From the NCBI GenBank assembly GCA_963713975.1, contig OY970218.1, forward strand, positions 1,696,001 through 1,760,000: a DNA stretch of 64,000 nucleotides, read 5' to 3'. Below the pieces are notes generated by a model. It did no database searches. It was not told the origin of the DNA and was given only the letters and a program-made list of their open reading frames with translations. Positions 41,034-60,929 of the stretch are shown in pieces. Positions within the stretch are counted from its first letter, which is position 1. The number at the start of each line of letters is the position of its first letter. The position numbers and the translations under genes were made by a program. Origin of the DNA: an uncultured Chloroflexia bacterium. GTDB taxonomy: Bacteria; Chloroflexota; Limnocylindria; Limnocylindrales; CSP1-4.

Positions 41034-41053
41034 ATGCCGCCGACGCGCAGTTT

Positions 41054-41507: not shown

Positions 41508-41509
41508 AA

Positions 41510-41548
41510 TGGCGCGCCCGGAGGGCGTCGGGCGCGCAGGAACAACAC
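41510..41548 (-). repeat. Distal att junction of the 18-kb element
   Basis: TGGCGCGCCCGGAGGG then CGT-CGGGCGCGCAGGAACAACAC; the arm is inverted relative to 59589-59608. Confidence 0.9.
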
Positions 41549-41681
41549 GAGTCAGCGGCTCATCACGCGATCGAGCCCAGCGATCGAGACGCCGCGTCGA
41601 TTCGGTGGAGCGTACGCTGAGGTTGCTGCCGCGGCCGCACAGCGGATGTTCGGCTGCCGGCTGGTGCTGAGGAGGGCCTGG

Positions 41682-42095
41682 ATGGACCGCACACCGATCC
41701 TGTTCGTCCGGCTGGCACCCTGGACGGACGACGAAGACAACGACCTGCCCCGTCGGGGCTACGGGTTCCGCGCAGGCATGACCGAGCAGGCACTGCGGGA
41801 CAGCACCCGGGCGTGGTGGGTCCTGAGCGCGGAGCGCGCGGCGAAGATGCACTACATCGCCGCGGTCGCCGAGGGCTACGTGGTGGGGATCTGGCGGATC
41901 GTGGATGGATCCTGGCGCACGATCGACGGGCGTCGGCTGGGCAAGAGCCCGCGCCGCTGGGCTTGCCAGGTCGCCGACGCCCCGGACGACATGTGGGGCC
42001 GCATTGTCGGCCAGCGCACACCCGATCGCCCAGACGGCGGTCCGCTCTTCGGCTCGGGCTCCGTGGTCGCGTACTGGCCGGAGCCGCCGCAATGA
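41682..42095 (+). CDS. Hypothetical protein
   Basis: GGAGG RBS; TRAWWVL..YIAAV..G.VVGIW; overlaps next gene (ATGA). Confidence 0.7.
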   Translation: MDRTPILFVRLAPWTDDEDNDLPRRGYGFRAGMTEQALRDSTRAWWVLSAERAAKMHYIAAVAEGYVVGIWRIVDGSWRTIDGRRLGKSPRRWACQVADAPDDMWGRIVGQRTPDRPDGGPLFGSGSVVAYWPEPPQ

Positions 42096-42520
42096 GCGCC
42101 GCATCGCATGGCCCGCTGTGGGACCGGATGGACGCGCAGCCGCGGTTCCGGTCGGCGGACCTCACCCGTGCCGACTTGCCGGCCGATCCCGGCGTGTACG
42201 CCTGGTACCGGCGCGGGCGAGCGGTCTACGTCGGCAAGGCGGACAGCCTGCGCGACCGGGCGTGGAAGAACCACATGGGCCAGAGCGCCACGATGGGCAC
42301 CTCCGCCTTCCGGCGCAACGTCGCCGAGTCCCTCGGGTGTGGCTCGTCCGCCGACATCAAGGCGAAGCGGGTGCTCCTCACGCCTGACGAGCTCGCCGCG
42401 GTCCGGGCCTGGATCATTGGCTGCAGCGTGACCTGGATCGTCTGCCCCTCGACCACGGCAGCGCTGACCCTCGAGAGCCGGATGAAGGGGGAGTGGATGC
42501 CGCCGCTGACCAAGCAGTGA
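42092..42520 (+). CDS. GIY-YIG nuclease family protein
   Basis: PGVYAWY..VYVGKADSLRDR, ALTLE, P.L.K. Confidence 0.85.
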   Translation: MSAASHGPLWDRMDAQPRFRSADLTRADLPADPGVYAWYRRGRAVYVGKADSLRDRAWKNHMGQSATMGTSAFRRNVAESLGCGSSADIKAKRVLLTPDELAAVRAWIIGCSVTWIVCPSTTAALTLESRMKGEWMPPLTKQ

Positions 42521-42996
42521 CCAGCCTCACCGTCTCCTTCAATTGGCAGCCGGCCGGACGCGTGACCGTCGATGTGGCGGGCGGTCTGGTGTTTCCCCTG
42601 CTCCCGGCGGCGCCGGGCCTGTACCGCTTCTGGATCGAGTCGTCCGACCCTAGGCCCGGGGTATACGTGGGCGAGGCCTCCATCCTCCACCGGCGGATGC
42701 AGCACTACCGCACGCCTGGCCCGAGCCAGTCCACGAACATCAGGCTCAACGCCATGCTCAGGGATGCCCTCCGTGGCGGTGCGACAGTGACCGTCTCGAC
42801 TGTCACGGCGGCGTCCCTGCGGCTCGACGATGGCCCTGTCGCCTCGCTCGACCTCGCGCGCCGAACGGGCCGACTCATCGTCGAGCAGGCGGCTATCACG
42901 GCCGCATCGGCCAGCAACCTCGCCGGTCCCGGGCAGCCGCCGCTGTACCCGCGCATCCTCGACAGGCCGGGCGTCGGCGAGACCGAGTACGAGTAA
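42517..42996 (+). CDS. GIY-YIG-like protein
   Basis: PGLYRF..VYVGEA..L.RR..HY..PG.SQ.TN; GTGA overlap. Confidence 0.7.
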   Translation: MTSLTVSFNWQPAGRVTVDVAGGLVFPLLPAAPGLYRFWIESSDPRPGVYVGEASILHRRMQHYRTPGPSQSTNIRLNAMLRDALRGGATVTVSTVTAASLRLDDGPVASLDLARRTGRLIVEQAAITAASASNLAGPGQPPLYPRILDRPGVGETEYE

Positions 42997-43207
42997 TGTG
43001 GGGTCGCAGCCCCGTGCCTGATGCTGGCCGCGGCATGGCGCGCCCGGACGGTGTCGCCCGGTCGTCTTCGGGCTCGCACGAACAGGGCCACCCGATTTGG
43101 TGCCCGGCTCCCGCACCGTGCGGCATAAGAGCCGCAGCCCGGTGCTCGAGGACGCTGGCAATCGGTTCGCGTACGTCAGTTGCGGCGGGGCCCGGCCGGC
43201 CCTTGCA

Positions 43208-44287
43208 CTAGACGGCGAGGCGCTCGATCGGGTGAAGCAGACCCTCATAGGGTGAGAGCCCGTCATAGCCGAGCGAGAGGTCCGCCGAGAGATCCTCGAG
43301 CGAGAATGCTCGTTTCGACTCGAGAAGGCCCATCGCGCGGCCGAGCAATTCCGGCTGCTCCGGCTCTCCGAGGTTCACTGGCTCCTCGCGTCGCCATCCG
43401 CGGCGGCCCATCTCCATCATCGCCCGCCGATACGCCGTGTCGGACACGACGCCGAGGTCGCGCGCACGGAGGAGCAGCATCGACATCGAGACGCCCCAGC
43501 GGAGTTTGAGGGCCGCGTATGCATGCCAGTCGACGCGTCGGGGGAGCTCGTGCAGGATTGTCGACGCTGGGACGAGCAGCTCCGCTGCGAAACGGTGCGC
43601 CTCTCTCTCGACCGCCCGATCTCCCGGTTTCGCATCAGGATGCAGCAACAGGTGGCCGAGCTCATGGGCCGCGTCAAAGCGTGACCTGTCGGTGGCGCCC
43701 TTGTTGGACACGAGGACCACGTACGGCCGAGCCCCCACCCAGCAGGAGAACGCATCGACCTCGTCGGAGGCCGCGGGTAGGCGTGCGACGATCACGCCCT
43801 TGCGTTCCAAGGCGCCGACCACGTTCGCGATCGGGCCGTCGCCCAGGCCCCAGGCACGGCGGATGATGCCCGCCGCTTCCTCGGGCGCGATCCCGGGAGG
43901 GATGTCCGGCAGGGACACTTCCGGAAAGCGGACGCGCCTCTCGATAGCGGCTACAACCTCCGCGAGCCGCTCTGCCTGCGCAAGCGCCTGGCTGCGGTCG
44001 CGCTTCGAGGCCGATCGCAAGCTGCGGAAATGGGCGTCGCCCTCGCGGACCTCGAAGAGGGGCCGGCCGCGTGTGAAGAACCCTACGGGCACACCCAGCG
44101 CCAGGGCGAGCTTCGACAACGTCGCGCTGCTCGGGCGCGCGACCTCCGACTCGAATTGACCGATAGCTGCCGGTGTCACGCCGATCTCGCTCGCCAGCTC
44201 GCCCTTGAGTGCGCCTCGGAACTGGCGGGCCTGCGTGAGCCGACGACCATCAAAGAGGAGACGTGCCGCCTCCAGGTCCGGGTTCAC
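43208..44287 (-). CDS. XRE-HTH plus ImmA/IrrE-type Zn metallopeptidase
   Basis: N-terminal HTH; RFDAAHELGHLLLH; E.EA..FAAELL.P. Confidence 0.92.
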   Translation of the reverse strand: MNPDLEAARLLFDGRRLTQARQFRGALKGELASEIGVTPAAIGQFESEVARPSSATLSKLALALGVPVGFFTRGRPLFEVREGDAHFRSLRSASKRDRSQALAQAERLAEVVAAIERRVRFPEVSLPDIPPGIAPEEAAGIIRRAWGLGDGPIANVVGALERKGVIVARLPAASDEVDAFSCWVGARPYVVLVSNKGATDRSRFDAAHELGHLLLHPDAKPGDRAVEREAHRFAAELLVPASTILHELPRRVDWHAYAALKLRWGVSMSMLLLRARDLGVVSDTAYRRAMMEMGRRGWRREEPVNLGEPEQPELLGRAMGLLESKRAFSLEDLSADLSLGYDGLSPYEGLLHPIERLAV

Positions 44288-44289
44288 CG

Positions 44290-44931
44290 TCAGGCCTCAG
44301 CGGCCGGGGCGCCCTCGTCGCGAAGTGCGATCTCGAAATCGCCCAACTCGATCGGCTCGGGCAGACCCGGGCGCGGCGCCGCCGGGAACTCCACCTCTGG
44401 ATCGGCGACGCTCCAGACGGGGATGATCTCCCGCCAGCCTGTCACGCGGTCGCCGTTGGTTTCGATGGGTGAGGCGAGGTAGACGGCAACGAGGTGATCA
44501 CGAGGGTTGCCCAGGTGGGCAATGATCCAGTTCGTCGCGAAGCCATCGTGCTCGAATTCCGCCTCGTCGAATAGCTGGAGCTGGTTCTCGCGTGCCATGA
44601 ATGCAGCGGCGCGGGAGCTGCGCGGGAACGATCCCCGGATGGACTCCCCGTCGTTGCCCCGGCCAACCTTGTTCCACCGAAGGCGATAAGGGCCGAGCAC
44701 GAGCTCCGGCCCCCTGCCGCGAGACTCGAATCGCGCGCCGGGGAATCCCTCGAACTCGTTTCGCATGTTGAATGACGCGACGTGGTACACCGCGAGGCCA
44801 TGAAGGTGATCACCGCGACCGCGGTCGGGCGCGTAGACCTCCTCGGCCTCGTCGTACGCCGCCCGGATTGCCCGGACGATCCCGGCTCGCACGGGCCCTC
44901 GGAACTCCTCGGGGCAACGGGTGTATTCCAT
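44290..44931 (-). CDS. Hypothetical protein, putative toxin partner of the peptidase
   Basis: 213 aa, 2 bp upstream of the ImmA-like gene; TTGACC..TGcTAACGT promoter. Confidence 0.7.
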   Translation of the reverse strand: MEYTRCPEEFRGPVRAGIVRAIRAAYDEAEEVYAPDRGRGDHLHGLAVYHVASFNMRNEFEGFPGARFESRGRGPELVLGPYRLRWNKVGRGNDGESIRGSFPRSSRAAAFMARENQLQLFDEAEFEHDGFATNWIIAHLGNPRDHLVAVYLASPIETNGDRVTGWREIIPVWSVADPEVEFPAAPRPGLPEPIELGDFEIALRDEGAPAAEA

Positions 44932-45063
44932 GTTCAGACGTTAGCAGAATGGCGCACAAATGGTCAACAGGTAAAGTGAACTCGTCGAATCGGTCTAGCT
45001 GCTGATAGTTGTCCTGCCGGGCGGCGGGGACATTGGGCAGCCGCGTCCGGGGGCACCTCTGTA

Positions 45064-46521
45064 CTACGCCTCGGCGCCGAGGATCCAGCCGGGAGTGAGC
45101 CCGGCGCCGCGGAGGATCTCCTTGGCGCGCTGGGCGTTGTCGTACTTGAGGTCACCGAGCCCGGGATCGGCGTCGACCCAGACCTTGTGGGCCAGGAGCC
45201 GGGAGAACAGATTCTCGATCATCTGCCAGTCCCTGTCGTCGAGCGCCCGGTAGAACACGCGACGGCGCTCTTCATCAGTGTAGAGCCGCAAGGACGGCGC
45301 GATCGCGTCCCGAAGGGTTGGCACCCAACCTCGAAGCGAGCCCGCCGAGAACAACCGGACGGCCTTCTGGTGCTCGCCGTCATTCCGTTCGGGCGCCCAC
45401 TTGTCCGCGAGGACGTGGTCCACGACCAGGTTCAGCAGGCGGACGACGTGCTCGCGCTCCTCGTCCCGATGGTAGGACTCGGACTCGAACTCGTCGTTGA
45501 GGGGTGGAGACGCGATGAACTCCGCGAAGAAGGTCTTCTCGAGGCGCCCGATCGTGATCGGGTTCTTCCGGCCGCGATTCTCCTCTTCAATGAAATCGCG
45601 GAACCGATTGCTCGGGTGCTCGATGATGTCGCGGTAGATCAGAGACCGAACACGACGGCCAGCCTCAGCGCCCGTCAAGTTCGCGCGCGCCCGCATGAAG
45701 TCAATGAACGCTGCCTCCGTCTTCGGGCCGGAGCCGAGCAGGAAGGCCTCCCAGTCCTCGTGCGCCATGTCGGCGTATTTCTCGAGCAGCGTCGACGTGT
45801 AGAAGGGCATCTGGCGCAGTCGGTCGTGCGCGGACAGATTCGTTTCCTTGAGCCGACGGACCTCGGGCGTGATGTAGACCTTGCAGTCGAGCGTGTTGCG
45901 CCCTGCCCAGATCTGCGCCGCCGCCTTGTGCTGACCGTCAAATAGCAGAACGTGACCGTCGACTAGGCGACACACCGCCGGGGCCAGCTGGGTGTGGCTT
46001 CGGAGGTGCTTGTACAGCTCCCATACGCGGTCGGGCTCGAGCGCTCGCGGCTGCAGCTCCACATCGTTGTGCAGGTGCTTGACGGGGAGGGTGGCGAAGA
46101 AGTACCCCTCGCCGGTTGCCGGGCACCGGGCGAGCGGTGCGCGGACCGTGCCGCCGTCGAGGTACAACAGGACCTCGCCGTCAGTAACCTCGGTCTGCAG
46201 CGTCAAGCCGTACGCCTTGGGGCCAAGCCGGGACGCGAGCAGATCGTCAAGCCGTCGCTTCTTCACGCCCTCGAAGAATTGCCGCAGGGCAAGACGATCG
46301 CGGTACTCGCTCAGCGAGAGGGTGCTCTTCTCTCGGTTGTGCTTCCGGCACACGGCGCCGATGTTGGCGATCTCCGAAGAACCGCCCTCGGCAAACGGAT
46401 TGACGTGGTCGAACTCCACATCAGCGTCATCTCCCAGCGGGGCGTTGTCGATGAAGCAGCGGTTCCCCTGTCGCTTGAGGACCTCCTGCTTCTCAGCTTC
46501 ACTGATCTGTCGCTTCGCCAT
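45064..46521 (-). CDS. HNH endonuclease fused to ParB/Srx-like (DGQH) domain
   Basis: EFDHVNPFAEGG...NI..VC..HN..K; LLFDGQHK. Confidence 0.82.
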   Translation of the reverse strand: MAKRQISEAEKQEVLKRQGNRCFIDNAPLGDDADVEFDHVNPFAEGGSSEIANIGAVCRKHNREKSTLSLSEYRDRLALRQFFEGVKKRRLDDLLASRLGPKAYGLTLQTEVTDGEVLLYLDGGTVRAPLARCPATGEGYFFATLPVKHLHNDVELQPRALEPDRVWELYKHLRSHTQLAPAVCRLVDGHVLLFDGQHKAAAQIWAGRNTLDCKVYITPEVRRLKETNLSAHDRLRQMPFYTSTLLEKYADMAHEDWEAFLLGSGPKTEAAFIDFMRARANLTGAEAGRRVRSLIYRDIIEHPSNRFRDFIEEENRGRKNPITIGRLEKTFFAEFIASPPLNDEFESESYHRDEEREHVVRLLNLVVDHVLADKWAPERNDGEHQKAVRLFSAGSLRGWVPTLRDAIAPSLRLYTDEERRRVFYRALDDRDWQMIENLFSRLLAHKVWVDADPGLGDLKYDNAQRAKEILRGAGLTPGWILGAEA

Positions 46522-46599
46522 CGTGATCCTTCCAGTGGCGGACGAGGACTTGCAGTTGTCTGCGCCTGCTCCGCGATCCCTGCTCGCCGCGGGCCGGGA

Positions 46600-46950
46600 T
46601 CACATCCCGTCGGAGGGCTCGTACCCGTGCTCCCGCAGCCTCTCGCGCGCCCTCGCGAGCTCATTGGAGGCGAACAACGGCCCGAACACAGGCTTCAGGA
46701 TCAGCGCCTCCATCGAGAGGTCGAGCCTGCCCTCTGCCTTCAGACGTTCGAAGCCCGCCGACACGCCGTTCTTCCACAGAAGCTGACGAGCGACGACAAG
46801 GCCGCCGTTCTTGCGGACGCTTCGAAGGAAGTAGCTGGCCCAATACCCCGTCGCCTTCCCGGCGAGCCAGTAGATCTCCTGCATCGCGGCATCGAACTGC
46901 AGCTCGAGCTTCTCGTCTTCGATGGGGGCGTCGGCGCCGGGATCGTTCAT
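46600..46950 (-). CDS. Conserved hypothetical protein
   Basis: GYWASYF..S.GF..L...GRLDLSME..F...E...A.ERL..GY; TAACCT 6 nt upstream. Confidence 0.75.
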   Translation of the reverse strand: MNDPGADAPIEDEKLELQFDAAMQEIYWLAGKATGYWASYFLRSVRKNGGLVVARQLLWKNGVSAGFERLKAEGRLDLSMEALILKPVFGPLFASNELARARERLREHGYEPSDGM

Positions 46951-46988
46951 GTGCGCAGGTTAGCGCTTGCCGCGCCCGCGATGCCGGG

Positions 46989-47894: not shown

Positions 47895-48090
47895 TGAAAT
47901 GATTTTAGAGCGCAAGACGTGGCTCCACACGCTGACGTCATGTCCGACCTCGAGGTTCTCCTCCGCCGCCTGAGCGCGTGGCTTGTCGACGTCGCGCTCT
48001 CGGGCCCCGAGGACCACACGCCGGACTCGTCGGTGCCGCCGCCGCAGAGCGCCCCCGACGCGAACGCCTGCGGGACCGAGGAGGCCAAAG

Positions 48091-50253
48091 ATGGCGACCC
48101 CGATTGCTTCCGTGCTCTCGAAGCTGGAGGCCGTCCGCCGCGAGGGCCACGGCTGGAGCGCGCGCTGCCCGGCGCACGAGGACGACGACCCCAGCCTGTC
48201 CGTGTCGGAGGGCGAGGAGGGGCGCGTCCTGATGTACTGCCACGCCGGCTGCCGGACCGACGACGTCGTGGCGGAGCTCGGCCTTGAGCTCCGCGACCTG
48301 TTCCCGGAGGGAGGGGAGGGAGGACAGGCCCCGAGCTCCGGCGCCACTGCACCACTGGGTGGCTGCTCGCTCGCCGACTACGCGGACGCCAAGGGGCTGC
48401 CGATCGAGTTCCTCCGTGAGCTCGGGCTGACAGACCTGTTCATCAGCAGCGCTCCGGCCGTGAACATCCCGTACCGCGACGAGTCCGGCCAGGAGATCGC
48501 GGTGCGGTTCCGCACAAGCCTCGATGGCGGCGACCGCTTCCGGTGGCGCAAGGGCTCCAAGGCGCTGCCCTACGGCCTCTGGCGGCTCGACGAGGCGCGG
48601 TCGGCCGGCGCGATCACGATCGTTGAGGGCGAATCCGACGCGCAGACCCTGTGGCTGCACGACATCCCTGCGCTCGGCGTCCCGGGAGCGTCGACCTGGC
48701 GGTCTGAGTGGGCAGCCTGCCTCGACGGGATCCAGCGGATCGACGTCGTGATCGAGCCCGATGCCGGCGGCGCAGCGGTGCTCGACTGGCTCGGGCGGAG
48801 CTCGTTCCGCGACCGGGTGCGGCTCATTCGGCTCGAGGGCGTCAAGGACCCGAGCGAGCTGTACCTGGGGGCGGTGTCCGACTTCACGGAGCGCTGGGCG
48901 AGGGCCGTGGCAGCCGCACAGCCCTGGACCGACGAGGCTGCCGCCGCGGCGGCGCGGACTGGCGCCGAGGCGCTCGTCCAGGCGGCTGGCCTCGAGGTGA
49001 CGAGCGACATCCTCTCAGCGTTCGCCGCCGACATCCGGGCATCGCGCCTGGTTGCGGGCGAGGAGCGGGCGCTCAAGCTCGTCTACCTGGCCGTCACGAG
49101 CCGCCTGCTCGATCACCCGGTTTCGCTTGCGCTCAAGGGCCCGTCAGCGGGCGGCAAGTCGTACATCGTCGAGCGGGTGCTCGACTACTTCCCGGATCGG
49201 GCCTACTACGCCATGACCGGCATGTCCGAGCGCGCGCTCGCATACGACGACGAGCCGCTGGAGCATCGGGTGCTCGTGATCTACGAGGCCGCCGGGTTGT
49301 CGGGCGAGATGGCCTCGTACCTCGTCCGCTCGCTGCTGTCCGAGGGTCACCTCCGGTACGTGACCGTCGAGAAGACCGCCGACGGGCTCCGCCCGCGGAC
49401 GATCGACCGCCCAGGCCCGACGGGCCTGATCGTCACGACCACCGCGATCGCGCTCCACCCCGAGAACGAGACGCGGCTCCTCTCGCTCCCGGTCACGGAC
49501 ACCCCGGCCCAGACCAAGTCGGTCATGCTGTCGCTCGCCGAAGGCGCCCAGGAGGGCCGCGACCTCACTCGCTGGCAGGCCCTCCAGACGTGGCTCAGCA
49601 CCGCGGAACCGCGCGTCGTGCTCCCGTTCGCCACCGCGCTCGCCCACCTCGTGCCGCCGGTCAGCGTTCGGATGCGCCGGGACTTCCGTGCGGTGCTCGA
49701 GCTGGTCCGCGCCCACACGCTGCTTCACCAGGCAACGCGGACGCGGAACGAGGCCGGTGCGGTGATCGGAACGATCGAGGACTACGGCGCGGTCCGGGAG
49801 CTCGTCGTCGACCTCATCGCGGAGGCGGCCGACGCCGCGGTCCCCGAGGCCGTCCGCGAAGCCGTGGCTGCCGTCGAGCGCCTCGGCGGGCACCGGCCGG
49901 CGGGCGACCGGGCCGACGACGCCGGGGTGACGGCCGTCGCGCTCGGCCGCGAGCTGGGCCTCGACAAGTCGGCCGCGCGGCGCCGGGCACTGGGCGCCAT
50001 CGAGCGCGGGTTCCTCACCAACCTCGAGGCGCGCCGCGGCCGGCCGATGCGGCTCGTCGTCGGCGAGCCGCTCCCCGACGAGGTCGAGATCCTCCCCGCG
50101 GCGGCCGAGCTCACGGCAGCCGTCGGTGGCACGGTGGCAGGGGAGCAGCCGGAGCCTGACCTCTCCCTCCCCCCGGACACTGGGTCTGACGACATCGTTG
50201 CGATCGCCCGCGAGATCTTCGGCGACGACCTCGTCGAGCCGGATCTGGCGTGA
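48091..50253 (+). CDS. DNA primase (Zn-binding + TOPRIM) fused to P-loop NTPase/helicase
   Basis: CPAHEDDDPSL..CHAGC, IVEGESD, GVPGA, KDP, GPSAGGKS; GAGGAGG RBS. Confidence 0.88.
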   Translation: MATPIASVLSKLEAVRREGHGWSARCPAHEDDDPSLSVSEGEEGRVLMYCHAGCRTDDVVAELGLELRDLFPEGGEGGQAPSSGATAPLGGCSLADYADAKGLPIEFLRELGLTDLFISSAPAVNIPYRDESGQEIAVRFRTSLDGGDRFRWRKGSKALPYGLWRLDEARSAGAITIVEGESDAQTLWLHDIPALGVPGASTWRSEWAACLDGIQRIDVVIEPDAGGAAVLDWLGRSSFRDRVRLIRLEGVKDPSELYLGAVSDFTERWARAVAAAQPWTDEAAAAAARTGAEALVQAAGLEVTSDILSAFAADIRASRLVAGEERALKLVYLAVTSRLLDHPVSLALKGPSAGGKSYIVERVLDYFPDRAYYAMTGMSERALAYDDEPLEHRVLVIYEAAGLSGEMASYLVRSLLSEGHLRYVTVEKTADGLRPRTIDRPGPTGLIVTTTAIALHPENETRLLSLPVTDTPAQTKSVMLSLAEGAQEGRDLTRWQALQTWLSTAEPRVVLPFATALAHLVPPVSVRMRRDFRAVLELVRAHTLLHQATRTRNEAGAVIGTIEDYGAVRELVVDLIAEAADAAVPEAVREAVAAVERLGGHRPAGDRADDAGVTAVALGRELGLDKSAARRRALGAIERGFLTNLEARRGRPMRLVVGEPLPDEVEILPAAAELTAAVGGTVAGEQPEPDLSLPPDTGSDDIVAIAREIFGDDLVEPDLA

Positions 50254-50408
50254 CGCGACCCGATTTCGCCGGACATATCACGCGCGAGTTGATGAGAGCC
50301 ATGACGCGCTCGGCGCGCGCGTCCCTCGTTGTTGTTTCGTGCGTGCCGCGCGCCCGAAGCACCTCAGACCCCCGATGGGATTGCCGTGAGGGAATTCCCA
50401 GAGGGGTA

Positions 50409-50622: not shown

Positions 50623-52146
50623 ATGACCTCCAGGCTGCACGTCGTCTACATCCGCCGCTCGATGAAGCGCGAAGGCGACGCCGACGTGTCCGACGAGACG
50701 CAGGAGGCCGTGGCCCGGTCCCGGCTGCCCGCCGATGCCATGGCCGAGGTCATCCGCGATTCGGGTGGCCACTGCTCCGGGTACACCGACCAGCGGCCCG
50801 GGTACCAGCGCCTGCTGGAGCTGGTGCGGTCGGGGGCTGTCGCCGGGATAGCCGCTTACGACGACAGCCGGCTCAACCGCAACGCCGAGAACGCCCTCGG
50901 CCTCCACCGCGAGTGCCTGCTCCGCGGCGTGAGCCTGTACACCAGCTCCACCCCTGCCGGAGCGCTCTTCGAGTCGGGCGGCAAGCTCAACTACAGCATC
51001 CAAGCGGTGGTCGCCGAGTTCTACCGCAACCAGCAGAGCGAGCGGATGAAGGCGATGTTCGCCCAGACGTTCGCCGTCGGCGGGCATCGCGGTCAGGATC
51101 CCTTCGGGTACGCGACGGCCCGTGACCACCTCCGTCGCGTGGTCCACCCGCGCCGCCTCGAGATCGTGCCCGAGGAGGCTGACGTCGTCCGCCAGGTCTT
51201 CGCGGAGCTCGCCGAGATGCCGTTCTCGGAGATCAGCGATCGTTTCAACGCCGGGGGCGTCCTCCGGCCAAGGAGCGGCCCGTGGACCGCGGACGCGGTC
51301 AAGGCGATCTGGGACCGACGATGGGTGTACCTCGGCTTCGTTGTTCGTGGCCGTGGTCACGACGATCGTCACGCCGGGCAGCACGAGCCGATCATCACTG
51401 AAGAGGAGTTCCGGGCCGCACTCGCGGCCGTCGAGGCGCGCAAGCGTGGTCGAGGCAAGGCGCCGCGCTCGAGCCGGCGGGTCTACCTGCTTCGTGGTCT
51501 CGCGTTCTGTTCCTGCGGCAGCCGGATGCGCGGCGACGCCCGTGTCCGGAACGGACGGGAGTACCGCTACTACGCCTGCCCGGTCTCCGACGGCCGCGGT
51601 AGATGGCTCGGGCCGACCGGGGAGGAGCTCAGCTGCCAGGAGCGCCGCATCCGAGCTGAGGTCGCAGAGGCCGACGTCCTGTACGCAGTGCGCGCGCTGG
51701 TCCTTCCGGCGGCCGTCATCGACCTCGCCCGCGAGGAGCTGGCCAGGCGCCTCGCTCTCGCGCCGCCGGATCTCACCGAAAGCCAGCGCCGCACGCTCAA
51801 GGTCCGGCTCGAGAACCTGCGAAAGCAGCACGAGTGGGGCGACATCGACGACCCCGAGTACCGGGCGGCCCGCGAAGCGCTCGAACGACAGCTGATGCTC
51901 CTGCCCGACCCCGACAAGGTCGTCGGCCTCGATCAGCGCCGCAAGGTCCTGGTTTCGATGGCCGAGAACCTCGAGCGCGCGACCCCGTTGCAGCGGCGTG
52001 CGATCGTCGAGCTGCTGGTCGAGCGGGTCACGATCGCCGACCGCTCGGTCCGCGCCACCCTTTGGGCTGAGGCGGCGCGCGCGTTCCTCCCGGGTGCGCC
52101 AGCGCACCAGGAGTCGCCGGCGGATCACCGGCCGAGCGCGGGATAG
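50623..52146 (+). CDS. Large serine recombinase (integrase)
   Basis: YIRRS catalytic motif, SG..RPG, SRLNRN, PFGY, H.PII, LLRGL..CSCG..YYAC zinc ribbon, coiled coil. Confidence 0.95.
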   Translation: MTSRLHVVYIRRSMKREGDADVSDETQEAVARSRLPADAMAEVIRDSGGHCSGYTDQRPGYQRLLELVRSGAVAGIAAYDDSRLNRNAENALGLHRECLLRGVSLYTSSTPAGALFESGGKLNYSIQAVVAEFYRNQQSERMKAMFAQTFAVGGHRGQDPFGYATARDHLRRVVHPRRLEIVPEEADVVRQVFAELAEMPFSEISDRFNAGGVLRPRSGPWTADAVKAIWDRRWVYLGFVVRGRGHDDRHAGQHEPIITEEEFRAALAAVEARKRGRGKAPRSSRRVYLLRGLAFCSCGSRMRGDARVRNGREYRYYACPVSDGRGRWLGPTGEELSCQERRIRAEVAEADVLYAVRALVLPAAVIDLAREELARRLALAPPDLTESQRRTLKVRLENLRKQHEWGDIDDPEYRAAREALERQLMLLPDPDKVVGLDQRRKVLVSMAENLERATPLQRRAIVELLVERVTIADRSVRATLWAEAARAFLPGAPAHQESPADHRPSAG

Positions 52147-52235
52147 CCCATCGAGACCTCCGGGGTGCCTGGGCGCGTCGTCCGGCGCGGCCCCGCGCCG
52201 CGCCGGCGGTCGCGGACGCGCCTCGCGCCATGGGG

Positions 52236-55200
52236 TCAGGCGGCGACAGCCGTCGCGCGGACTCTCTTGAGCGTCGCGATGAGCTGGTCGACATCCGCCC
52301 CGGCGAAGAGCCCGTCCGGCCCGAACGGGGCGATGTCCGTGAAGGGCGACTCGTAGAGCAGCTCGGCCCTCATGAAGCCGTGCTCGGTCAGGTGGTCGAC
52401 GATCAGGTTGACGAACTCGATCTGGTTCGCGGTCAGGGTCCGCCCGGCCAGGAAGTCGCCGAACGCCTCCTTCGCCGCGGCTCGGTCGAGCCCGACGAGG
52501 GTCCTGACGAACAGCCCGAGCCCCTCGGACTCCGCCTTGGCGCGCTCGAGCGCGCCCTTGTCGCCGACGCCGCTCTCGAGGAGCATCCGTTCGAGCTCGG
52601 CCAGATCGGTCGGCGTCAGTGGTCGGTTCATGCGCAGCTTGCGTATGGCCGCGTGGTCCTGGTGCTCTCGCAGGAACGCTTGGGCCTTGGCGCGGAACTT
52701 CTCGAAGTCGATCCCGGCCACAAGGCCCGGCAGGCCGATCTCGACCTCGGCGCCCATCAGGTCCTCGAAGTCGACGTAAAGGACACGACGCCGCGCCTTC
52801 TCGATGAACGGGACTAGGTCGCGCAGGTGCCGCCGCGCGCGCTCCAACATCGGGAGCGTGACGTGGATCCACCAGTCGTCGGTCTGGACCTCCTCGATGA
52901 GCGCAAGCTGGGCTCTGACCATCGGGATGGCGGCCTTCTCCTCGAGGATCGACGCGATCGCCTTCACCTGGTCGCGCAGCCCCTCGAACGCGGGAAGCGA
53001 CCGGAGGAAGGCGAGCTCGAGGTTGAGCACGAGCAGGTCGAACCGCCTGGTCTCCTCGGCCTCGGCGTCGAGTCTCGGCCGGCAGCCCGGCGACGTGGGT
53101 CGCCAACTCCGCCCGGTCCTCGGCCGACAGCGGCCCCCACGCCTCCGGCTGCCGGAACCGCTCGACGAGGCGCCGCTGCGGGCGGACCAGGAAGTTGTCC
53201 AGGTTCATCGCCGCGACCTCGCCGTGCAGCGACGCCGCAAAGGCTCGCCGGACCTCCTCGTCGGTGCTCGGGTCGCCGTAGACGGGGGCCGCCGGCGCCG
53301 CTGCCCTCGTCGCATCGCCGCCTGGGCGTTGGTCAAGCGCCGCGACGAGCTCCATGCGCCGGATGAAGAGCTTCTTGCTGAGCGGCTCGGCGACCGAGCC
53401 CTCGGTCATCGGCGCGTCCTGGCTGAAGTACTCGAGGTTCCCGCAGTAGTCGAAGAGCCGGAACTTGCTCTTGTCGTCCCCGGGACCGAAGAGGTCGGGG
53501 CACAAGCGCGTCCCCCGGCCCAGCATCTGCCAGAACTTGGTCTTCGAGCGGACGAGCTTGAAGAGGACGAGGTTCACGACCTCGGGGATATCGATCCCGG
53601 TGTCGAGCATGTCGACCGAGATCGCGATGTGCGGGGCCTTGTCCTTGGCGGAGAACCAGTCGATGAGGCTTTGCGCGTACTCGGTCTTGAAGGTGATGGT
53701 GCGCGCGAATTCGCCGCGGTAGTGCGGGTAGTTGGCGTTGAACCGCTCGGCGATAAAGTCCGCGTGCGCCTGGTTCTTGGCGAAGACGATCGTCTTGCCA
53801 AGCCGGTCGCCGCCCGCGACCTTAATGCCGCGCTCCATAAGGTGCGCGAGCACCTTGTCGACTGTGTCGACGTTGAACAGCCAGCGGTTGACAGCCTCGG
53901 CAGTGACGGTGTCCGGCGGGTCGTCTCTCCCACTCGAGCGCGTCGTACGCGTCCTTCTCGTCCTCGGAAAGCTCGTCGTACTTGATGCCCTCACGCTGGA
54001 ACTTCAGCGGGACCGACACCGCCTCGGGCGGGACCAGGAAGCCGTCACGGACGGCCTCCTCGAGCGAGTAGGCGTCCGTCGGGACGCCGGTCTCGAGGTC
54101 GAACAGGCCGTAGGTGTTGCGGTCGACCTCGTCCTTAGGTGTCGCCGTCAGCCCGACCAGGAGAGAATCGAAGTAGTCGAAGATCGCACGATACTTTGCG
54201 AAGACCGAGCGATGGGCTTCGTCGATAACCACGAGGTCGAAGTGTCCGGCTCCGAACCGGCGCTGCCCGTCGGTCGCCTCATCGATCAGGCCCATCATGG
54301 TCGGGTAGGTCGAGACGAAGACGCGGCCCTCACCCGCCGGGTCGTCGAGGAGGTTCACGGGCGATGCCTCGGGGAGGAACGCCTTGAAGGCGTTCGTCGC
54401 CTGCCGAACGAGCGCGACCCGGTCCGCCAGGAAGAGGATGCGCTTGGCCCAGTTGGCGCGCATCAGCAGGTCGGCGAGCGCGATGATGGTGCGGGTCTTG
54501 CCCGCACCAGTTGCCATGACCAGGAGCGCCTTGCGCTGGCGGTCGCTCTCGAAAGACTCGGCTATCCGGCGGATGGCGCGGGTCTGGTAGTAGCGCTCGA
54601 CGATCGTCGGACTGATCGACGCTGTCGCCAAGGGCCTTGCGGCTCGTGCGGCGCTGGACCAGCAGCTCAAGCTCAGCCCTCTTGTAGAAGCCCGATACCC
54701 GGCGCGGCGGGTAATGCGCGTCGTCCCAGAGCCAGTGCTCGTAGCCGTTCGAGTAGAAGATGACCGGGCGTCGGCCGAACCGCGCCTCCAGGCAGTCGGC
54801 GTACAGGCTCGCCTGCTGCTGGCCGGCCCGCGGGTCGCGGCGGGTCCGCTTGGCCTCGACCAGGCCGAGCGGGAGTCCGTCGTCTCCCCAGAGGACGTAG
54901 TCGACGAAGCCGCGGCCGTCGCCGTTCGGCATGCCGGCGACCTCGAACTCGCGGTCGCGAACCTCGGCGAGTGGCCAGCCGGCCTCCTTGAGCAGGAGGT
55001 CGATGAAGTAGTCGCGTGTATCGGCCTCGGAGTAGTCGTGGAGGTCAGGCTGCGTCGCGGCGGCCTTCCTGGCGGCCGCGACCTCGGCACGCAGCCGCCT
55101 CAGTTCCTCGTCGAGCACGCCTTTGTCCGAGAGTAGTGCCGCGAGCTTCTCGTCCCGTTCGCGCAGACTCGCCTCCAGACGCCGCAACTGATCCGCAGTC

Positions 55201-55646
55201 TGCGGCTCGGCCGTCCCTGACTTGGGAAGCGCCCCGGCATCGAACGTTAAGCCGGGCGCCGGTCTTCCCATGCGCCCGTAAGTGCGGGCGAACCAGTAGG
55301 TGACGTGGAAGAGCTCGCGCACAGCGGCCAGGGCATCGACGGCCGGCACGGCGCCGTGGCTGTGCACCGCCCGGTTCCCGAGAGTGTTGATCACGCGGGC
55401 CTTGCTGAACACGGCTTCGCCGGCAGACTGCTTGAAGCTCGGCTCATGGATCAGCGCAGATAGGTTGTCCTGATACGGCAGCCTGAGCCCGACATCGTGT
55501 TTGTAGGCCCAGCTCACCGCCAGCTCCAGCGCGCGACGAGCATAGAAGCATGCCGCGCGCGGGTCGCTGTGCACGGCGGCTTCCGCCTTCGAGGCAGCCT
55601 CGAAGACCGACGCCCATTCAGGCTGGAGGAAAGCGAACTGGCTCAC
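52236..55646 (-). pseudogene. hsdR: Type I restriction subunit (EcoEI/type IB-like), three frameshifts
   Basis: VEAK, MATGAGKT, DEAHRS, TATP, QMLGRGTRL spread over four frame segments; indels at ~54635, ~53928, ~53073. Confidence 0.9.
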
Positions 55647-56602
55647 CTCGTGCGCCTCCAGAATGCGAGGCGGCCCAGCAGGCTCCCTGACTTGTTCTCC
55701 TCGGCGGGCGATGCGACGAGGGCTGCCAGGGCCGCGGCAGCGGGAATCGCCTGACGGCCGCTGGCCCCGAAGATCGCATCGGCGCTGAGGCGATCCTCAA
55801 GGTATGGGGTGAATCCGGTGAGAAGGATGGACATTGCCACCATGTCTCGCATGTCCATCGGGCGCAGCGCGTTAGCGGGAGTACCGCCATGACGAATGCC
55901 CGGGTAGTCGGAAGCGAACCCATAGAGGTCCTTCATCGCCGCCTTGAGCTTCTCGTGCGGCCAGGTGCCGACCTGATCGCATATCGCCCCCAAGGTCTTG
56001 CCCGTGACGCCCGGATACCCGCGCCCGATCGCCTCCACCAGGTTCACCTGCTTCTGGATGCAGGTCTTGATGCGCCCGTCGGAGCTGTCGTGCCCGAGAT
56101 CCCGCACTGCGTTCTCGAATTCCTTTGTCAGGGCGTCGAGATGGGGGTCCTGACTCGTCAATGCCCGCAGGTCGCGCACGAGGCTCGCGAACAGGCCAGG
56201 AAGCGTCGGACAGAAGATGCACGGTCGTCGTAGGTCGTAGCGGAGGTTGAACTTGTCGATGAAGGCCGCAAGCACGTTGAAATAGCGGTTGGACAGCTCG
56301 TCGCCGCCCAGGTCATCGAGCGCCGGGTGCGCGGCCTCCAAGAAGGTGAGCACTGCTCGCTCGCCTGCGAGGTCTGTCGCCCTCGTCCCCTCGAAGGCAG
56401 CCCGGCTCTGAACCGGGTTGTCGATTATGTCGGCGAGGGCTTCGATCGAGGGCTGTTCCTTGAGCGCCTTGGCAAGCTCTCGATATAGCTCACAGAAGAT
56501 GTCCTCCGGAACGTCCTCGTTCTCACCTAGCGGTTCGTCAATCAGTCGGAGCCAGATCTCCTGCCACGTCTCCGCCCAGACACTGATGAACTCGCCATGC
56601 AT
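55643..56602 (-). CDS. Hypothetical protein inserted in hsd operon, possible HEPN/AbiJ-like C-terminus
   Basis: LYGFASDYPGIRHG motif; tightly coupled to hsdS and hsdR. Confidence 0.7.
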   Translation of the reverse strand: MHGEFISVWAETWQEIWLRLIDEPLGENEDVPEDIFCELYRELAKALKEQPSIEALADIIDNPVQSRAAFEGTRATDLAGERAVLTFLEAAHPALDDLGGDELSNRYFNVLAAFIDKFNLRYDLRRPCIFCPTLPGLFASLVRDLRALTSQDPHLDALTKEFENAVRDLGHDSSDGRIKTCIQKQVNLVEAIGRGYPGVTGKTLGAICDQVGTWPHEKLKAAMKDLYGFASDYPGIRHGGTPANALRPMDMRDMVAMSILLTGFTPYLEDRLSADAIFGASGRQAIPAAAALAALVASPAEENKSGSLLGRLAFWRRTR

Positions 56603-56604
56603 TG

Positions 56605-57798
56605 CTACAGCCCTGCGCTGAAGGCGTGCTGCTGAAGTGAGGCGAAGAGGGATTCCAGCTCTGCCAGACCCGCGAGCTGCTGGTTCCTAATCGCGTCGCT
56701 GACCGACAACCGCCTGGCAAATTCGAGCTGAAGAGCGAGCGGCGGGCTCAGGAGGGGGAATGCTCGAAGCTGCGTCATGTTGATCGACGCAATGCCAGTC
56801 GTCTGTTTCGCCGATCGGAGGAAATATCTCTTTCCGCGCTGGCTCCCCACTAGCCAGTTCAAGAACAAGGGCGTCACCTCCTCGGATCGGAGGCGTACAC
56901 GAAACACGTGATTCTGGTGAATGCACTCAGGCAGCTCCTTGCTCCACAGGGTGCCGCGACCCAGCTTGTCCGGATCACCTCCCTCTGTCAGCAGCAAGTC
57001 ATTCTGCTCCAGGCGGTAGCGCTGAATCTCCTGCTCTGTCGCCTCGGTGGTCTTCGTCAGCGTGAGATCGAGGCGCCGGTCTTGTACGTTCACGACTGCC
57101 AGATAGGGAACCGTTCGCGTAGCCTTACCAGCGAGATTCCGCCCGATCGTTACCCCGGAGACAATTTCGGCCACGTCGCAGAGCTGAGTGGAGTCCGGCC
57201 ATCCCTTCGGGTTCGTGGCGGGGTCGCCGAACATATCGAGGAAGATGGCTAGGTTGAGAGCATCGAGCTGCATAAGGGACGAGCGGCGCTTGGCGCGCAG
57301 CGTGTCTGCCTTCTCCAGGACAGCCGCAATCCGTTCTCGATCGGCTGGCGATCTGGGCGCTCGGATTCTCATGCTCTCGATATCGCCAAGCCTTATCGAA
57401 GGATACGCAGCATCTTTGATTAGGACGGTCGGCGAGAATCGCCGAAGAGCCTGGGCAAGAAAGGCACTGTCGCTCGTCTCGTGTGGCACCAAAGCCGCTA
57501 GGTGATTCACAACGTATGCCGGTTTCCTGAGGCGATAGACAAGCCCTTTGGTCGCCGACATTCCACTCTTGGCAAACAACACGGTGCCCGCCGGGTAGAG
57601 CCTGAGGCCGTACTGCTTCGCGACTGCTGGCTCGATCCGCTCAAGGCTGTCTTCCCCTGCGCCGTCCAGGAGCTTGGACAGACTGCCAGCGCGGATGAAC
57701 GGGGAGCCGGCCCTCGAGAAGGCCGCCGAGTCCTGAGGTGCACCCCCTCCCGCGTGGACTGTCGCCAGCTCGGATAGCGGCATGGACGCGAGGGTCAT
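56605..57798 (-). CDS. hsdS: Type I R-M specificity subunit
   Basis: Two TRDs with helical spacers; FLDMFGDP..NPKGW, PPL.LQ..F. Confidence 0.92.
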   Translation of the reverse strand: MTLASMPLSELATVHAGGGAPQDSAAFSRAGSPFIRAGSLSKLLDGAGEDSLERIEPAVAKQYGLRLYPAGTVLFAKSGMSATKGLVYRLRKPAYVVNHLAALVPHETSDSAFLAQALRRFSPTVLIKDAAYPSIRLGDIESMRIRAPRSPADRERIAAVLEKADTLRAKRRSSLMQLDALNLAIFLDMFGDPATNPKGWPDSTQLCDVAEIVSGVTIGRNLAGKATRTVPYLAVVNVQDRRLDLTLTKTTEATEQEIQRYRLEQNDLLLTEGGDPDKLGRGTLWSKELPECIHQNHVFRVRLRSEEVTPLFLNWLVGSQRGKRYFLRSAKQTTGIASINMTQLRAFPLLSPPLALQLEFARRLSVSDAIRNQQLAGLAELESLFASLQQHAFSAGL

Positions 57799-59333
57799 CC
57801 CAACATCCCCTCCAGCTGTGTCATCTCCCGCTGGATCTCCTCCTCTAGCGTCGCCAGGTCCGCGAGGATTTCCTTCGGCGGTCGGTGCTCCATCTCCTCG
57901 TGCACGATTTCCTGGTAGCGGTTGAGAGAGAGGTCGTAGCCATGCGCGGCGATGTCGGCCTTCGGTACGCAGAAGCTTTGCGCGGTGCGAGGTTGCTGGC
58001 GCTCGGCACCATTCCGCTCCGTCCAGCGCGCGAGCACATCGGGTAGGTTGTTCCTCTGGTGCTCGCCAGCAGCCAGCGCTGTCCGCGGTACGGCGCCAAG
58101 CTTGTCCTCGCTCAGCAGGGGCGTCCGCCTGTCGTCGAGGCTCCGGCCATCGGCCGCGACATCGTAGAACCAGACCTGGTCTGTGCCCCCTGAGTTGGTC
58201 TTCGTGAAGAACAGGATGGCCGTCGAGACGCCCGCATACGGCCGAAAGGCGCCGCTCGGGAGCGACACGACGGCATCCAACTTCTGCTCTTCAACCAGCA
58301 TCTGCCGGAGGGCCTTGTGTGCCTTGCTCGAGCCGAAGAGGACACCGTCGGGGACGATGACGGCGGCCCGGCCGCCCGGCTTGAGGAGTCGCAGGAAGAG
58401 CGCGAGGAAGAGCAGCTCGGTCTTCCTGGTCTTGACAATCGCGAGCAGGTCCTTCGCCGTGCCCTCGTCGTCGAGGCTGCCGGCGAACGGAGGATTGGCG
58501 AGAACGAGCGTGTAAGCCTCCGCATCCGCTGCATGGTCCTGGGCGAGCGAGTCGCGATACCGGATGTCCGGGTTTTCGATGCCGTGGAGCAACATGTTCA
58601 TGCTTCCGATCCGGAGCATGGTGTTGTCGAAGTCAAAGCCGTGGAACATCCCCTCATGGAAGTGCTTCCGCAACTTCGCGTCGTGCAGTAGGTTCGGATA
58701 CTGGCGCCGGAGGTACTCGCCCGCGGCGACCAGGAAGCCGGCGGTGCCGCAGGCCGGGTCGCAAATCGTGTCCGTCGGCTGCGGGGCCGTCATCTCGACC
58801 ATGAGGGCGATGATGTCCCGTGGCGTTCGGAACTGTCCGTTCTGGCCCGCGGTGGCGATCTTGCCGAGCATGTACTCGTAGAGGTCGCCCTTGGTATCGC
58901 GGTCCGCCATCGGCACTTCGTCGATTAGGTCGACGACCTTCGCTAGCAGTGCCGGTGTCGGGATCGTGAACCGAGCGTCCTTCATGTGGTGCGCATACGT
59001 GGAGTCGTCCGCGCCCAGCGTCCGCAGGAAGGGAAAGACGCTGTCGCGGACTATCGCGAACATCTCGGCCGGGGCTTCGTTCTTGAAGCGAGACCACCGG
59101 AGCTGCTCGTACCGGCGCCCGAGCGCATCCTGCCCGTCGGGGTAGAACCGCCGCGTCATCGGTTCGCCGAGACGAGCGGCCTTGTTCTCCTCAAGCGTCT
59201 CGAGGTCATCGAGCCGGCGGAGGAAGAGCAGGTAGGTGATCTGCTCGATTACCTCGAGGGGGTTGGAAATGCCGCCGGACCAGAAGGCGTCCCAGATCCG
59301 GTCGATTTGGGACCGCAGTTGGCCGGTCAGCAT
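57795..59333 (-). CDS. hsdM: Type I R-M N6-adenine methyltransferase
   Basis: GQFRTP, DPACGTAGFL, ANPPF, VPDGVLF. Confidence 0.95.
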   Translation of the reverse strand: MLTGQLRSQIDRIWDAFWSGGISNPLEVIEQITYLLFLRRLDDLETLEENKAARLGEPMTRRFYPDGQDALGRRYEQLRWSRFKNEAPAEMFAIVRDSVFPFLRTLGADDSTYAHHMKDARFTIPTPALLAKVVDLIDEVPMADRDTKGDLYEYMLGKIATAGQNGQFRTPRDIIALMVEMTAPQPTDTICDPACGTAGFLVAAGEYLRRQYPNLLHDAKLRKHFHEGMFHGFDFDNTMLRIGSMNMLLHGIENPDIRYRDSLAQDHAADAEAYTLVLANPPFAGSLDDEGTAKDLLAIVKTRKTELLFLALFLRLLKPGGRAAVIVPDGVLFGSSKAHKALRQMLVEEQKLDAVVSLPSGAFRPYAGVSTAILFFTKTNSGGTDQVWFYDVAADGRSLDDRRTPLLSEDKLGAVPRTALAAGEHQRNNLPDVLARWTERNGAERQQPRTAQSFCVPKADIAAHGYDLSLNRYQEIVHEEMEHRPPKEILADLATLEEEIQREMTQLEGMLG

Positions 59334-59588
59334 GAGGAGACCCCCGATATGCGATGGCGCATGATGGCTGCGCTCTACTGTAGCGATCGACTCACTGGAT
59401 CGGTGCTCGCTGAGCTCAGCAACGGTGGAAGTGGCATCCAGGACTGACGCGTCCGATGGCCGCGCGCTCGCCGCCCGAGGGAATGCCGCGACAACAGTCT
59501 GGACGGGAACGCGAAGGGGATTGCCTTCACACACACCCGCAGTTGCACGTCGGCCGCGTGGCGCCGGGGGGCGGCGGGTCATCGACGT

Positions 59589-59612
59589 GTGTTGTTCTGG
59601 CGCGCCCGGAGG
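59589..59612 (-). repeat. Proximal att arm of the 18-kb element, including the left copy of the IS target duplication
   Basis: GTGTTGTTCTGGCGCGCCCGGAGG; 59597-59612 is identical to 60929-60944. Confidence 0.9.
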
Positions 59613-60928: not shown

Positions 60929-60929
60929 C

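Follow-up and report, generated by a model that had tools for sequence, protein, structure and literature searches.

A probable large serine recombinase island at the 3′ end of tRNA-Arg(TCG) and the cassette array that surrounds it

Which enzyme placed an 18.1-kb segment beside a tRNA gene in an uncultured Chloroflexia bacterium, and at which nucleotides it acted, are the questions raised by the locus studied here. The stretch analysed, hereafter the window, comprises 64,000 nucleotides (positions 1,696,001 to 1,760,000 of contig OY970218.1, assembly GCA_963713975.1) of a genome that consists of one contig of 3.62 Mb with 70.8% G+C, and the segment occupies positions 41510-59612 of the window. 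A first-pass annotation made from the DNA letters had proposed that joining the two segment ends restores the attP site of a large serine recombinase (LSR) that targets a tRNA. We examined the sequences, their symmetry and conservation, and the gene neighbourhoods, and we consider it likely that the segment is an LSR-type integrative island at the 3′ end of tRNA-Arg(TCG) and the recombinase-bearing member of an array grown by accretion.

The proposed limits, 41510 and 59612, proved exact, with the same 15-mer, TGGCGCGCCCGGAGG, lying at 41510-41524 and at 59598-59612. Its reverse complement forms the last 15 nt of tRNA-Arg(TCG), which agrees with the earlier claim that one arm of the site is the tRNA acceptor end. 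The sequence GCGTCGGGCGCGCAGGAACAACAC stands directly to the right of the left 15-mer (41525-41548), and GTGTTGTTC directly to the left of the right one (59589-59597). Joining the ends on the minus strand reproduced the 48-mer of the first-pass annotation, with 18/20 matching arm positions. When all 22 positions flanking the central dinucleotide CC were counted, 18 were symmetric. No other centre tried scored as high, and shuffling one arm 5000 times never gave an equal value. The outer 9-nt arms are complementary to each other although they are not tRNA sequence, and the outer arm GAACAACAC occupies positions 15-23 from the centre. The central CC is found in the joined ends as well as in tRNA-Arg(TCG), and it is non-palindromic, as polarity demands. 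The joined ends have the form of a serine-integrase att site, that is, an imperfect inverted repeat of ~40-50 bp around a shared non-palindromic dinucleotide. The inner arm of the P half can be read as the 5′ acceptor strand of the tRNA, and the palindrome as a replica of the acceptor stem with a short loop closing it; as the two strands of that stem are complementary, copying the 5′ one would supply the second half-site for a dimeric enzyme. With up to 2 mismatches, the 15-mer occurs 9 times in the window (shuffle mean 1.96, maximum 6). Exact copies number six (33737, 34920, 39657, 41510, 59598 and 60930), four of them outside the segment ends, and the whole genome holds 8.

The LSR frame contains the domains Resolvase (PF00239, 6.8e-16), Recombinase (PF07508, 9.5e-10) and Zn_ribbon_recom (PF13408, 1.5e-8) in that order, and it matched the PHROG 95 integrase family at 1.4e-67. 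In the N-terminal part, in the region of the catalytic serine, its R-R-S motif aligns with D-R-Q-S of the phiC31 integrase (4bqq). The protein has the make-up of an LSR, with a resolvase-type catalytic domain carrying the Ser, followed by a recombinase domain and a zinc ribbon. The gene had been described as lying 7-9 kb from both ends, and the measured distances are 9.0 kb and 7.4 kb. Pfam and PHROG scans found no other site-specific recombinase in the segment. Tyrosine recombinases (PF00589) occur at no more than 3 places in the genome, all more than 500 kb from the window, and a tyrosine integrase was ruled out as the island enzyme, there being no PF00589 in the island or within 500 kb of it.

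Homologues of the LSR (E <= 1e-30) were found in 43 of 401 genomes of the family, with 42-53% identity, and a genus-wide search returned them in 3 of 70 genomes. Among the 29 homologue loci listed for other genomes, 23 have a tRNA gene ~10-100 nt from the 3′ end of the LSR gene, always in convergent orientation (tRNA-Glu(TTC) 19, tRNA-Arg(CCT) 3, tRNA-Arg(TCG) 1). Of the six without a tRNA, five run into a contig edge close to the 3′ end of the LSR gene, and L018 alone departs truly from the rule. A further homologue, in genome G432, is likewise tRNA-linked. The genome studied here carries three LSRs, at or near three different tRNA-Arg genes: besides the window LSR, one (C1:2958611-2967434) is 50% identical to it, is separated by 43 nt from tRNA-Arg(CCT) and belongs to an element of 8.75 kb that has a 16-nt repeat, and the other (C1:1303477-1304954) adjoins tRNA-Arg(CCG). 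By tblastx the tRNA-Arg(CCT) element shares the LSR alone with the window island, and its joined ends are symmetric at 12/22 positions, with 82 of 5000 shuffles as good.

In four tRNA-Arg(CCT) elements the direct repeats measure 16 (own genome), 17, 16 and 14 nt; they start in common at CC and vary at the 3′ limit; the identity block in the window is likewise 16 nt (tRNA nt 61-76). A fixed 5′ limit and a free 3′ limit fit a 2-bp crossover at CC, with the remainder kept to rebuild the tRNA. In G184, a member of another genus, an LSR 48% identical to that of the window abuts tRNA-Arg(TCG) in an 8.7-kb element (L043 11163-19842), and the joined ends of this element form a 48-bp palindrome (16/22, 0/5000 shuffles) that has the same centre and different outer arms. 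The att sites of LSR homologues, named by the first-pass annotation as a place to check its proposal, consequently speak in its favour, both by the CC at which the tRNA-Arg(CCT) repeats start and by the centre of the G184 palindrome.

The closest homologue came from metagenomes. The 22-mer composed of GTTGTTC and the 15-mer was found in 119 metagenome stretches, and among the 83 junctions examined, one contig (L160) carries an LSR with 59% identity to that of the window, which ends 33 nt before GTTGTTC, the 15-mer and tRNA-Arg(TCG). The outer arm type of the right segment end therefore also adjoins this nearest relative. Taken together, the sole recombinase in the segment, the tRNA-linked relatives, the palindromes on the same centre and the shared arm support, by comparison, the pairing of the att sites with the LSR gene that had first been put forward. 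In L160 (588-2045) the open frame of the LSR continues through the att site into the antisense strand of the tRNA; where the frame crosses the att site in this way, integration would alter the C-terminus of the recombinase. It was also observed that GAAGAACGG, read as P-F-F on the LSR strand, is conserved 14-23 nt past the tRNA end at many LSR-tRNA loci, including the junction regions of L044-L046 and L052-L055.

Outside this group, relatives are distant. A genome scan over all species gave no close relative, with 31 of the 32 loci listed at 21-31% identity and one at 52% over ~107 residues, and no LSR in the phage and plasmid collections exceeded 28%. The half-site pattern was absent from viral contigs, and a free circular form with an unsplit attP was not found. 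The phiC31, Bxb1 and A118/LI integrases resemble the window LSR in the catalytic Ser and in the order of Resolvase, Recombinase and zinc-ribbon domains, whereas the phage and plasmid LSRs of the collections searched share less than 28% identity with it, and here the target is a tRNA, 14 nt of which are rebuilt and which makes up half of attP. According to the available part of one report, each subunit of the A118-type integrase contacts 25 bp per attP half-site, with the zinc ribbon at attP positions 16-24, and the attB motif lies 5 bp further inward than in attP (PMC3783163). As far as that part goes, the outer motif at 16-24 compares with 15-23 here, and the putative attP of ~48 bp is of the same kind, an imperfect inverted repeat around a non-palindromic dinucleotide.

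From these observations we infer the following course, which extends to the catalysis, the crossover point, the succession of events and the trans-mobilisation of cassettes. An LSR dimer would bind an imperfect-palindrome attP of ~48 bp on the circular element, one half of which would consist of the last 14 nt of the tRNA plus the outer arm GAACAACAC, while the other half would mimic its reverse complement. Strand exchange would take place at CC, the start of the 3′ strand of the T-stem (tRNA nt 61-62 by our own parse of the tRNA, plus-strand GG 60944-60945). The element would replace and restore the last 14 nt of the tRNA, and a 16-nt repeat would remain at both ends. The segment itself would probably comprise a small cassette (41510-43035) and an LSR module, with a restriction-modification operon at the place usually held by the LSR-side arm. 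After integration, an insertion sequence (IS) of the IS481 family would have landed 1 nt past CCA, splitting the tRNA-side junction and bringing its own 15-mer. Junctions that have the P arm only would be attR-type sites, and an LSR element at the tRNA could, on excision, take along however many adjoining cassettes and at a later time depart alone.

The other contents of the segment are given with the remaining features in Table 1. A type I restriction-modification operon (52236-59582, minus strand) fills the space between the 3′ end of the LSR gene and the right arm. The window LSR retains a conserved A-A-R-x-F near its C-terminus and then diverges, so that the operon sits where the homologues have the arm. 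In this operon hsdR is split while hsdM and hsdS are open, and the split gene is either a pseudogene or the product of indel errors in the assembly. Several open reading frames (ORFs) of the segment gave no family match. The degenerate junction at 43036 is probably an old, decayed one that parts the small cassette from the LSR module, and the 18.1 kb look like two or three accreted modules.

Table 1. Features in and around the segment 41510-59612, with positions in the 64-kb window.
Feature	Position	Strand	Basis or remarks
IS right-end remnants	33611-33736 and ~39600-39656		abut the 15-mers at 33737 and 39657
1.2-kb unit	33737-34934	+	one alpha/beta-hydrolase gene, no recombinase; ends join to a similar palindrome (18/22, 0/5000 shuffles)
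Unit bounded by exact 15-mers	34920-39671	+	histidine kinase, ABC transporter, TfoX-like; arm type …CCAAC…
Unit bounded by exact 15-mers	39657-41524	+	PadR and an ORF of unknown function; arm type …CCAAC…
Decayed remnant of a related IS481-family element	41054-41509	+	80-83% identity to the complete IS; weak rve match; right end abuts the left junction
Left end, putative attR-type junction	41510-41548	+	16-nt identity block 41510-41525; central GG 41524-41525; P arm CGTCGGGCGCGCAGGAACAACAC 41526-41548
Degenerate internal junction	43036-43090	+	15-mer with 1 mismatch; decayed P arm with ~12-nt insertion; between convergent ORFs
Helix-turn-helix (HTH) and ImmA/IrrE-type metalloprotease regulator	43208-44287	-	Pfam Peptidase_M78, HTH_3; phrog_2439 3e-95
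HNH-endonuclease-domain protein	45064-46521	-	PHROGs HNH endonuclease 3e-9; weak Pfam match
DNA primase-like gene (CHC2 zinc finger), upstream of LSR	47983-50253	+	PHROG DNA primase 5e-21; Pfam Zn_ribbon_DnaG below cut-off
LSR gene	50623-52146	+	open frame from 50551, likely start 50623; the 531-aa frame has its catalytic Ser at residue 37
hsdR, at least 3 frames	52236-55646	-	Pfam HSDR_N, ResIII, EcoEI_R_C; helicase part in another frame
ORF of unknown function	55643-56602	-	between hsdS and hsdR
hsdS	56605-57798	-	Pfam Methylase_S
hsdM, type I restriction-modification	57795-59582	-	Pfam N6_Mtase, HsdM_N
Right end	59589-59612	+	outer arm GTGTTGTTC (P′ outer) and 15-mer copy; IS left end next, so 16th base absent
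Complete IS481-family IS	59613-60929	+	transposase 59670-60872; Pfam rve, rve_3, HTH_32, LZ_Tnp_IS481; inverted ends
tRNA-Arg(TCG), predicted attB-bearing gene	60930-61006	-	ARAGORN; sole tRNA in the window; identity block is the last 16 nt, 60930-60945

The junction sequence is not confined to this genome. A search of the 401 family genomes for the 15-mer with the P arm (30 nt, at most 3 mismatches) found the motif in 56 genomes belonging to 13 of 49 genera, and the reversed control gave none. Downstream of tRNA-Arg(TCG) it often stands in 2-7 copies at intervals of 1-8 kb. A 39-nt motif is conserved across 62 non-redundant junctions taken from 14 arrays, and conservation falls to background 23-24 nt from the centre. 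The array units contain one or two ordinary genes, such as monooxygenases, hydrolases, TetR, MerR and extracytoplasmic function (ECF)-sigma regulators, transporters, a TIR protein and STAND NTPases. The same cassettes (86-93% identity) were found in different genera at different positions, with the homology beginning exactly at the 15-mer, and one genome holds the same 1.02-kb cassette twice. In the genome studied here, the array apparently begins 28 kb to the left of the window (genome position 1668029). At least two more conserved arm families were seen after the 15-mer, ...CCAACC(T/A)TCGTGA and ...GTTAGCAACCTAC..., which occur in the window (34935-34957 and 39672-39694) and in L137, L144, L145, L148, L154 and others, and which may pair with recombinases of other subtypes that use the same position in the tRNA. 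To the left of the first 15-mer in the window lies a 1257-aa ORF (29676-33449, minus strand) with coding-like codon bias and no Pfam family.

At the right end, the segment is separated from its presumed target. The first-pass annotation had placed attB at the T-arm of the tRNA; the 3′-end sequence is as written there, and the gene was found 1.3 kb to the right of the segment, behind the complete IS, which is inserted 1 nt past the CCA end of tRNA-Arg(TCG). ARAGORN gives this tRNA 77 nt, and the position of the D-arm suggests that the tRNA itself measures 75 nt and begins 2 nt further on; the 2 nt in excess lengthen the acceptor pairing and are present in the P arm too. The IS belongs to the IS481 family by its single DDE transposase with an rve core and a leucine zipper and by terminal inverted repeats starting with TGT. 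A second, 100% identical copy (C1:3178496-3179827) has its right end 1 nt from the CCA end of tRNA-Val(TAC), and the Arg 15-mer still stands before its left end, from which it follows that the IS carries this 15-mer with it. The right-hand repeat at 59598-59612 is therefore most simply explained as an IS-borne copy, in which case the true tRNA-side junction would be the tRNA itself; before the IS arrived, GTGTTGTTC would have adjoined the tRNA directly, and the joined site would be unaffected. The flanks of the IS at tRNA-Arg resemble a 16-bp duplication, and the flank to its left at tRNA-Val consists of the Arg 15-mer and not of Val sequence; 1 nt alone is repeated at each site (C..C and T..T). 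Right ends or remnants of the IS abut four of the six exact 15-mers in the window, 60930 and, besides it, 33737, 39657 and 41510.

Elsewhere, too, the IS481-family element was seen to insert 0-2 nt past the CCA ends of tRNA genes or tRNA-like ends. The same arrangement of IS and 15-mer at tRNA-Arg was observed in G013, G001, G008 and G018 and at 4 metagenome junctions. A 118-nt remnant of the IS right end at C1:1206221-1206420 abuts a degenerate tRNA-like sequence (TGGCGCGCCCG...) with the same acceptor end, and this tRNA-like sequence was not called by ARAGORN. Tandem 15-mers with TG, GA, TGTG or no spacer stand directly before a tRNA or junction in L007 (G009; 7-91), L087 (8732-8763), L094 (5566-5597) and L010 (165-194), and they resemble traces left behind as IS copies were repeatedly inserted and lost. 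A limited literature search, in the texts available, returned nothing relevant on insertion sequences homing to tRNA 3′ ends, an absence that is not proof.

Several observations weigh against the reading of the segment as an island put in place by its own LSR. An integrase gene beside attP or the element end, a habit of the family and not a defining feature, is not seen in the window, where the LSR lies 7.4 kb from the nearer end, whereas in the homologues it abuts the site; the C-terminal tail of the window LSR diverges exactly where the homologues enter the site. The tRNA-side junction is split by the IS, and the IS-side 15-mer is without the first C of the dinucleotide. At the tRNA-Arg(CCG) paralogue no repeat of 12 nt or more was found within 80 kb, and none was found in the spans examined of the tRNA-Glu(TTC) elements, several of whose contigs end inside the element. 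No sequencing run containing the stretch was found (at most a share of 0.11 of the words matched, probably those of the IS). The GTGTTGTTC-like arm stands on the tRNA-3′ side in 8 of 64 array junctions, an IS end in 10 and something else in 46. LSRs of this target type are present in 2 of the 401 family genomes (G000 and G184), and the half-site motif in 56 of them. In the arrays of other genomes, tblastn found no LSR in any of 12, Pfam analysis of 138 ORFs (9 arrays and the G184 locus) found no recombinase except the G184 LSR, and the 20 ORFs of the remaining three arrays (L086, L088 and L095) contained none.

The first group of these points bears on whether this LSR copy and these ends belong together. 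The LSR tail and the split hsdR suggest decay, the copy may be stranded or inactive, and the end arms may derive from neighbouring cassettes of the same type instead of from the LSR module. Carried further, the window LSR would be a dead remnant whose own arms have decayed, with the restriction-modification unit contributing the right arm and the small cassette the left one, so that the type of att site would be right and the pairing wrong. The degenerate junction at 43036, the restriction-modification operon standing where the homologues have the arm, the divergence of the tail at that very place and the fragmented hsdR as a sign of decay all fit such a history. We nevertheless regard it as rather unlikely, as the LSR frame is open and keeps all domains together with the catalytic Ser, and as the closest homologue uses the same GTTGTTC arm, so that the arm type suits the LSR lineage whichever module donated it.

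The contrast between 56 genomes with the motif and two with a matching LSR, and the recombinase-free ORFs of nine arrays, would be accounted for if cassettes and island were moved by another recombinase, either host-encoded or acting on a hairpin of 15-mer and arm, the LSR then being one user or a passenger at a hot spot. Such an enzyme would also agree with the conservation of one arm alone across the junctions and with the 9-bp stem ending in CA that the conserved 39 nt can form, as read by eye from the sequence. This explanation is improbable in our judgement, since no array searched contains a candidate enzyme, both LSR-bearing units have two-armed palindromes on the same centre, the whole LSR clade lies at tRNA 3′ ends with repeats that begin at the same nucleotide, and conservation stops at the length expected of an LSR half-site. 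The joined site is presumably unlike a dif site, and Xer/dif-type modules were set aside. That the repeats are by-products of the IS481-family element, with 18 kb caught between two insertions and a palindrome due by accident to the self-complementary acceptor stem, fits the Arg 15-mer at the left of the identical copy at tRNA-Val, the IS right ends at four of six window copies and the tandem 15-mers with TG spacers in relatives, but it is very improbable given that the IS brings the 15-mer alone and not the 24-nt arm conserved in 62 junctions, that the outer 9-nt non-tRNA arms are complementary too, that the halves flank the 18 kb in the order of a recombined circle and not in that of an insertion into a palindrome, and that 46 of 64 junctions have neither an IS end nor a GTGTTGTTC-like arm. 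Plain target duplication by the IS was rejected as the source of the repeats on the same grounds.

With the LSR island as the preferred explanation, the array can be compared with known systems. In staphylococcal cassette chromosomes (SCC), the Ccr recombinases, which are LSRs, integrate into the 3′ end of a housekeeping gene and leave the gene intact, and tandem arrays include cassettes that have no recombinase and are flanked by copies of the target end. Docking at a 3′ end and tandem recombinase-less cassettes, as in SCC and the enterococcal cassette chromosomes, make these the closest parallel for the array described here, which likewise consists of tandem units at the 3′ end of one gene, bounded by its repeats and in many cases without a recombinase. 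SCC, however, targets rlmH with a ccrAB pair, whereas here a tRNA is targeted, the recombinase gene is single, and most cassettes consist of one ordinary gene and span 1-3 kb; the host family, high in GC and labelled actinobacterial, is also unlike that of staphylococcal SCC. On the evidence of its target, the array is classed here as SCC-like in behaviour and not as a member of SCC. Integrons and clusters of attC sites lacking integron integrases (CALINs) are rows of one- or two-gene cassettes with imperfect palindromic sites, often in arrays without a recombinase. The array shares with them the recurrence of the same cassettes in different order across genomes and the recombinase-less arrays, but it has neither IntI with attI nor any other PF00589 protein in the arrays scanned, the gene orientation is mixed, and the site is a mimic of a tRNA end at a tRNA gene. 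Islands that target tRNA genes reportedly carry, for the most part, tyrosine integrases. The resemblance to these lies in integration into the 3′ part, restoration of the tRNA and tandem accumulation at one tRNA; the differences are the absence of PF00589 here, an identity block of 14-19 nt, a short palindromic attP and no sign of arm-type sites.

We propose tentatively, and with less confidence than the island itself, that tRNA-Arg(TCG) in this family serves as a cassette-capture platform run by serine integrases, a serine counterpart of integrons and SCC present in at least 13 genera. LSR elements would dock at nt 61-62 through an attP that imitates the acceptor/T minihelix and leave one- or two-gene cassettes behind. 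Each cassette would keep a 24-nt P half-site and the 15-nt tRNA end, enough to act as an attR-type partner for excision with a resident LSR element, and the IS481-family element homing to CCA ends would reset occupied sites.

Targeting of tRNA genes by serine recombinases is rare but has already been predicted in print. Surveys of mycobacterial prophages, in the parts available, place serine-integrase sites inside ORFs with cores of 5-8 bp (PMC8092301, PMC10654092). The accessible text of Ghinet et al. (2011) calls serine-recombinase integration into tRNA genes rare, predicts it for eight Mycobacterium elements in tRNA-Leu and cites phiRSM1 in tRNA-Ser (PMC3218068). These Mycobacterium AICEs (actinomycete elements that are integrative and conjugative) are alike in that actinobacterial integrative elements with a serine recombinase are predicted to use a tRNA gene (PMC3218068, same text). 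The targets differ, being tRNA-Leu and tRNA-Ser there and tRNA-Arg and tRNA-Glu here, in a comparison based on the descriptions available, and the enzyme of phiRSM1 is small and resolvase-like, unlike the window LSR. No crossover position, palindromic attP or cassette array is described in that accessible text (PMC3218068). In the main texts of the literature searched (supplements may list more cases), we found no account of this LSR clade or of a crossover at tRNA nt 61-62, and none of a palindromic attP that imitates a tRNA or of rows of cassettes at tRNA-Arg.

Serine integrases are favoured for the insertion of large DNA, and each needs a known pair of short sites. The outcome of this study is a predicted attP, attB and crossover point for a clade that naturally targets a conserved tRNA gene and has sister lineages on tRNA-Arg(CCT), tRNA-Arg(CCG) and tRNA-Glu(TTC). 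It also illustrates a way in which a tRNA can serve as target for a dimeric enzyme whose site has to be symmetric. The most interesting part is the wider array, which extends outside the coordinates first annotated and whose cargo, as far as seen, consists of ordinary accessory genes, namely regulators, hydrolases, transporters and defence genes. To our knowledge, integrons are not known in high-GC actinobacteria. If it is true that LSRs build these cassette rows, high-GC actinobacteria would possess a gene-capture system comparable to SCC and integrons.

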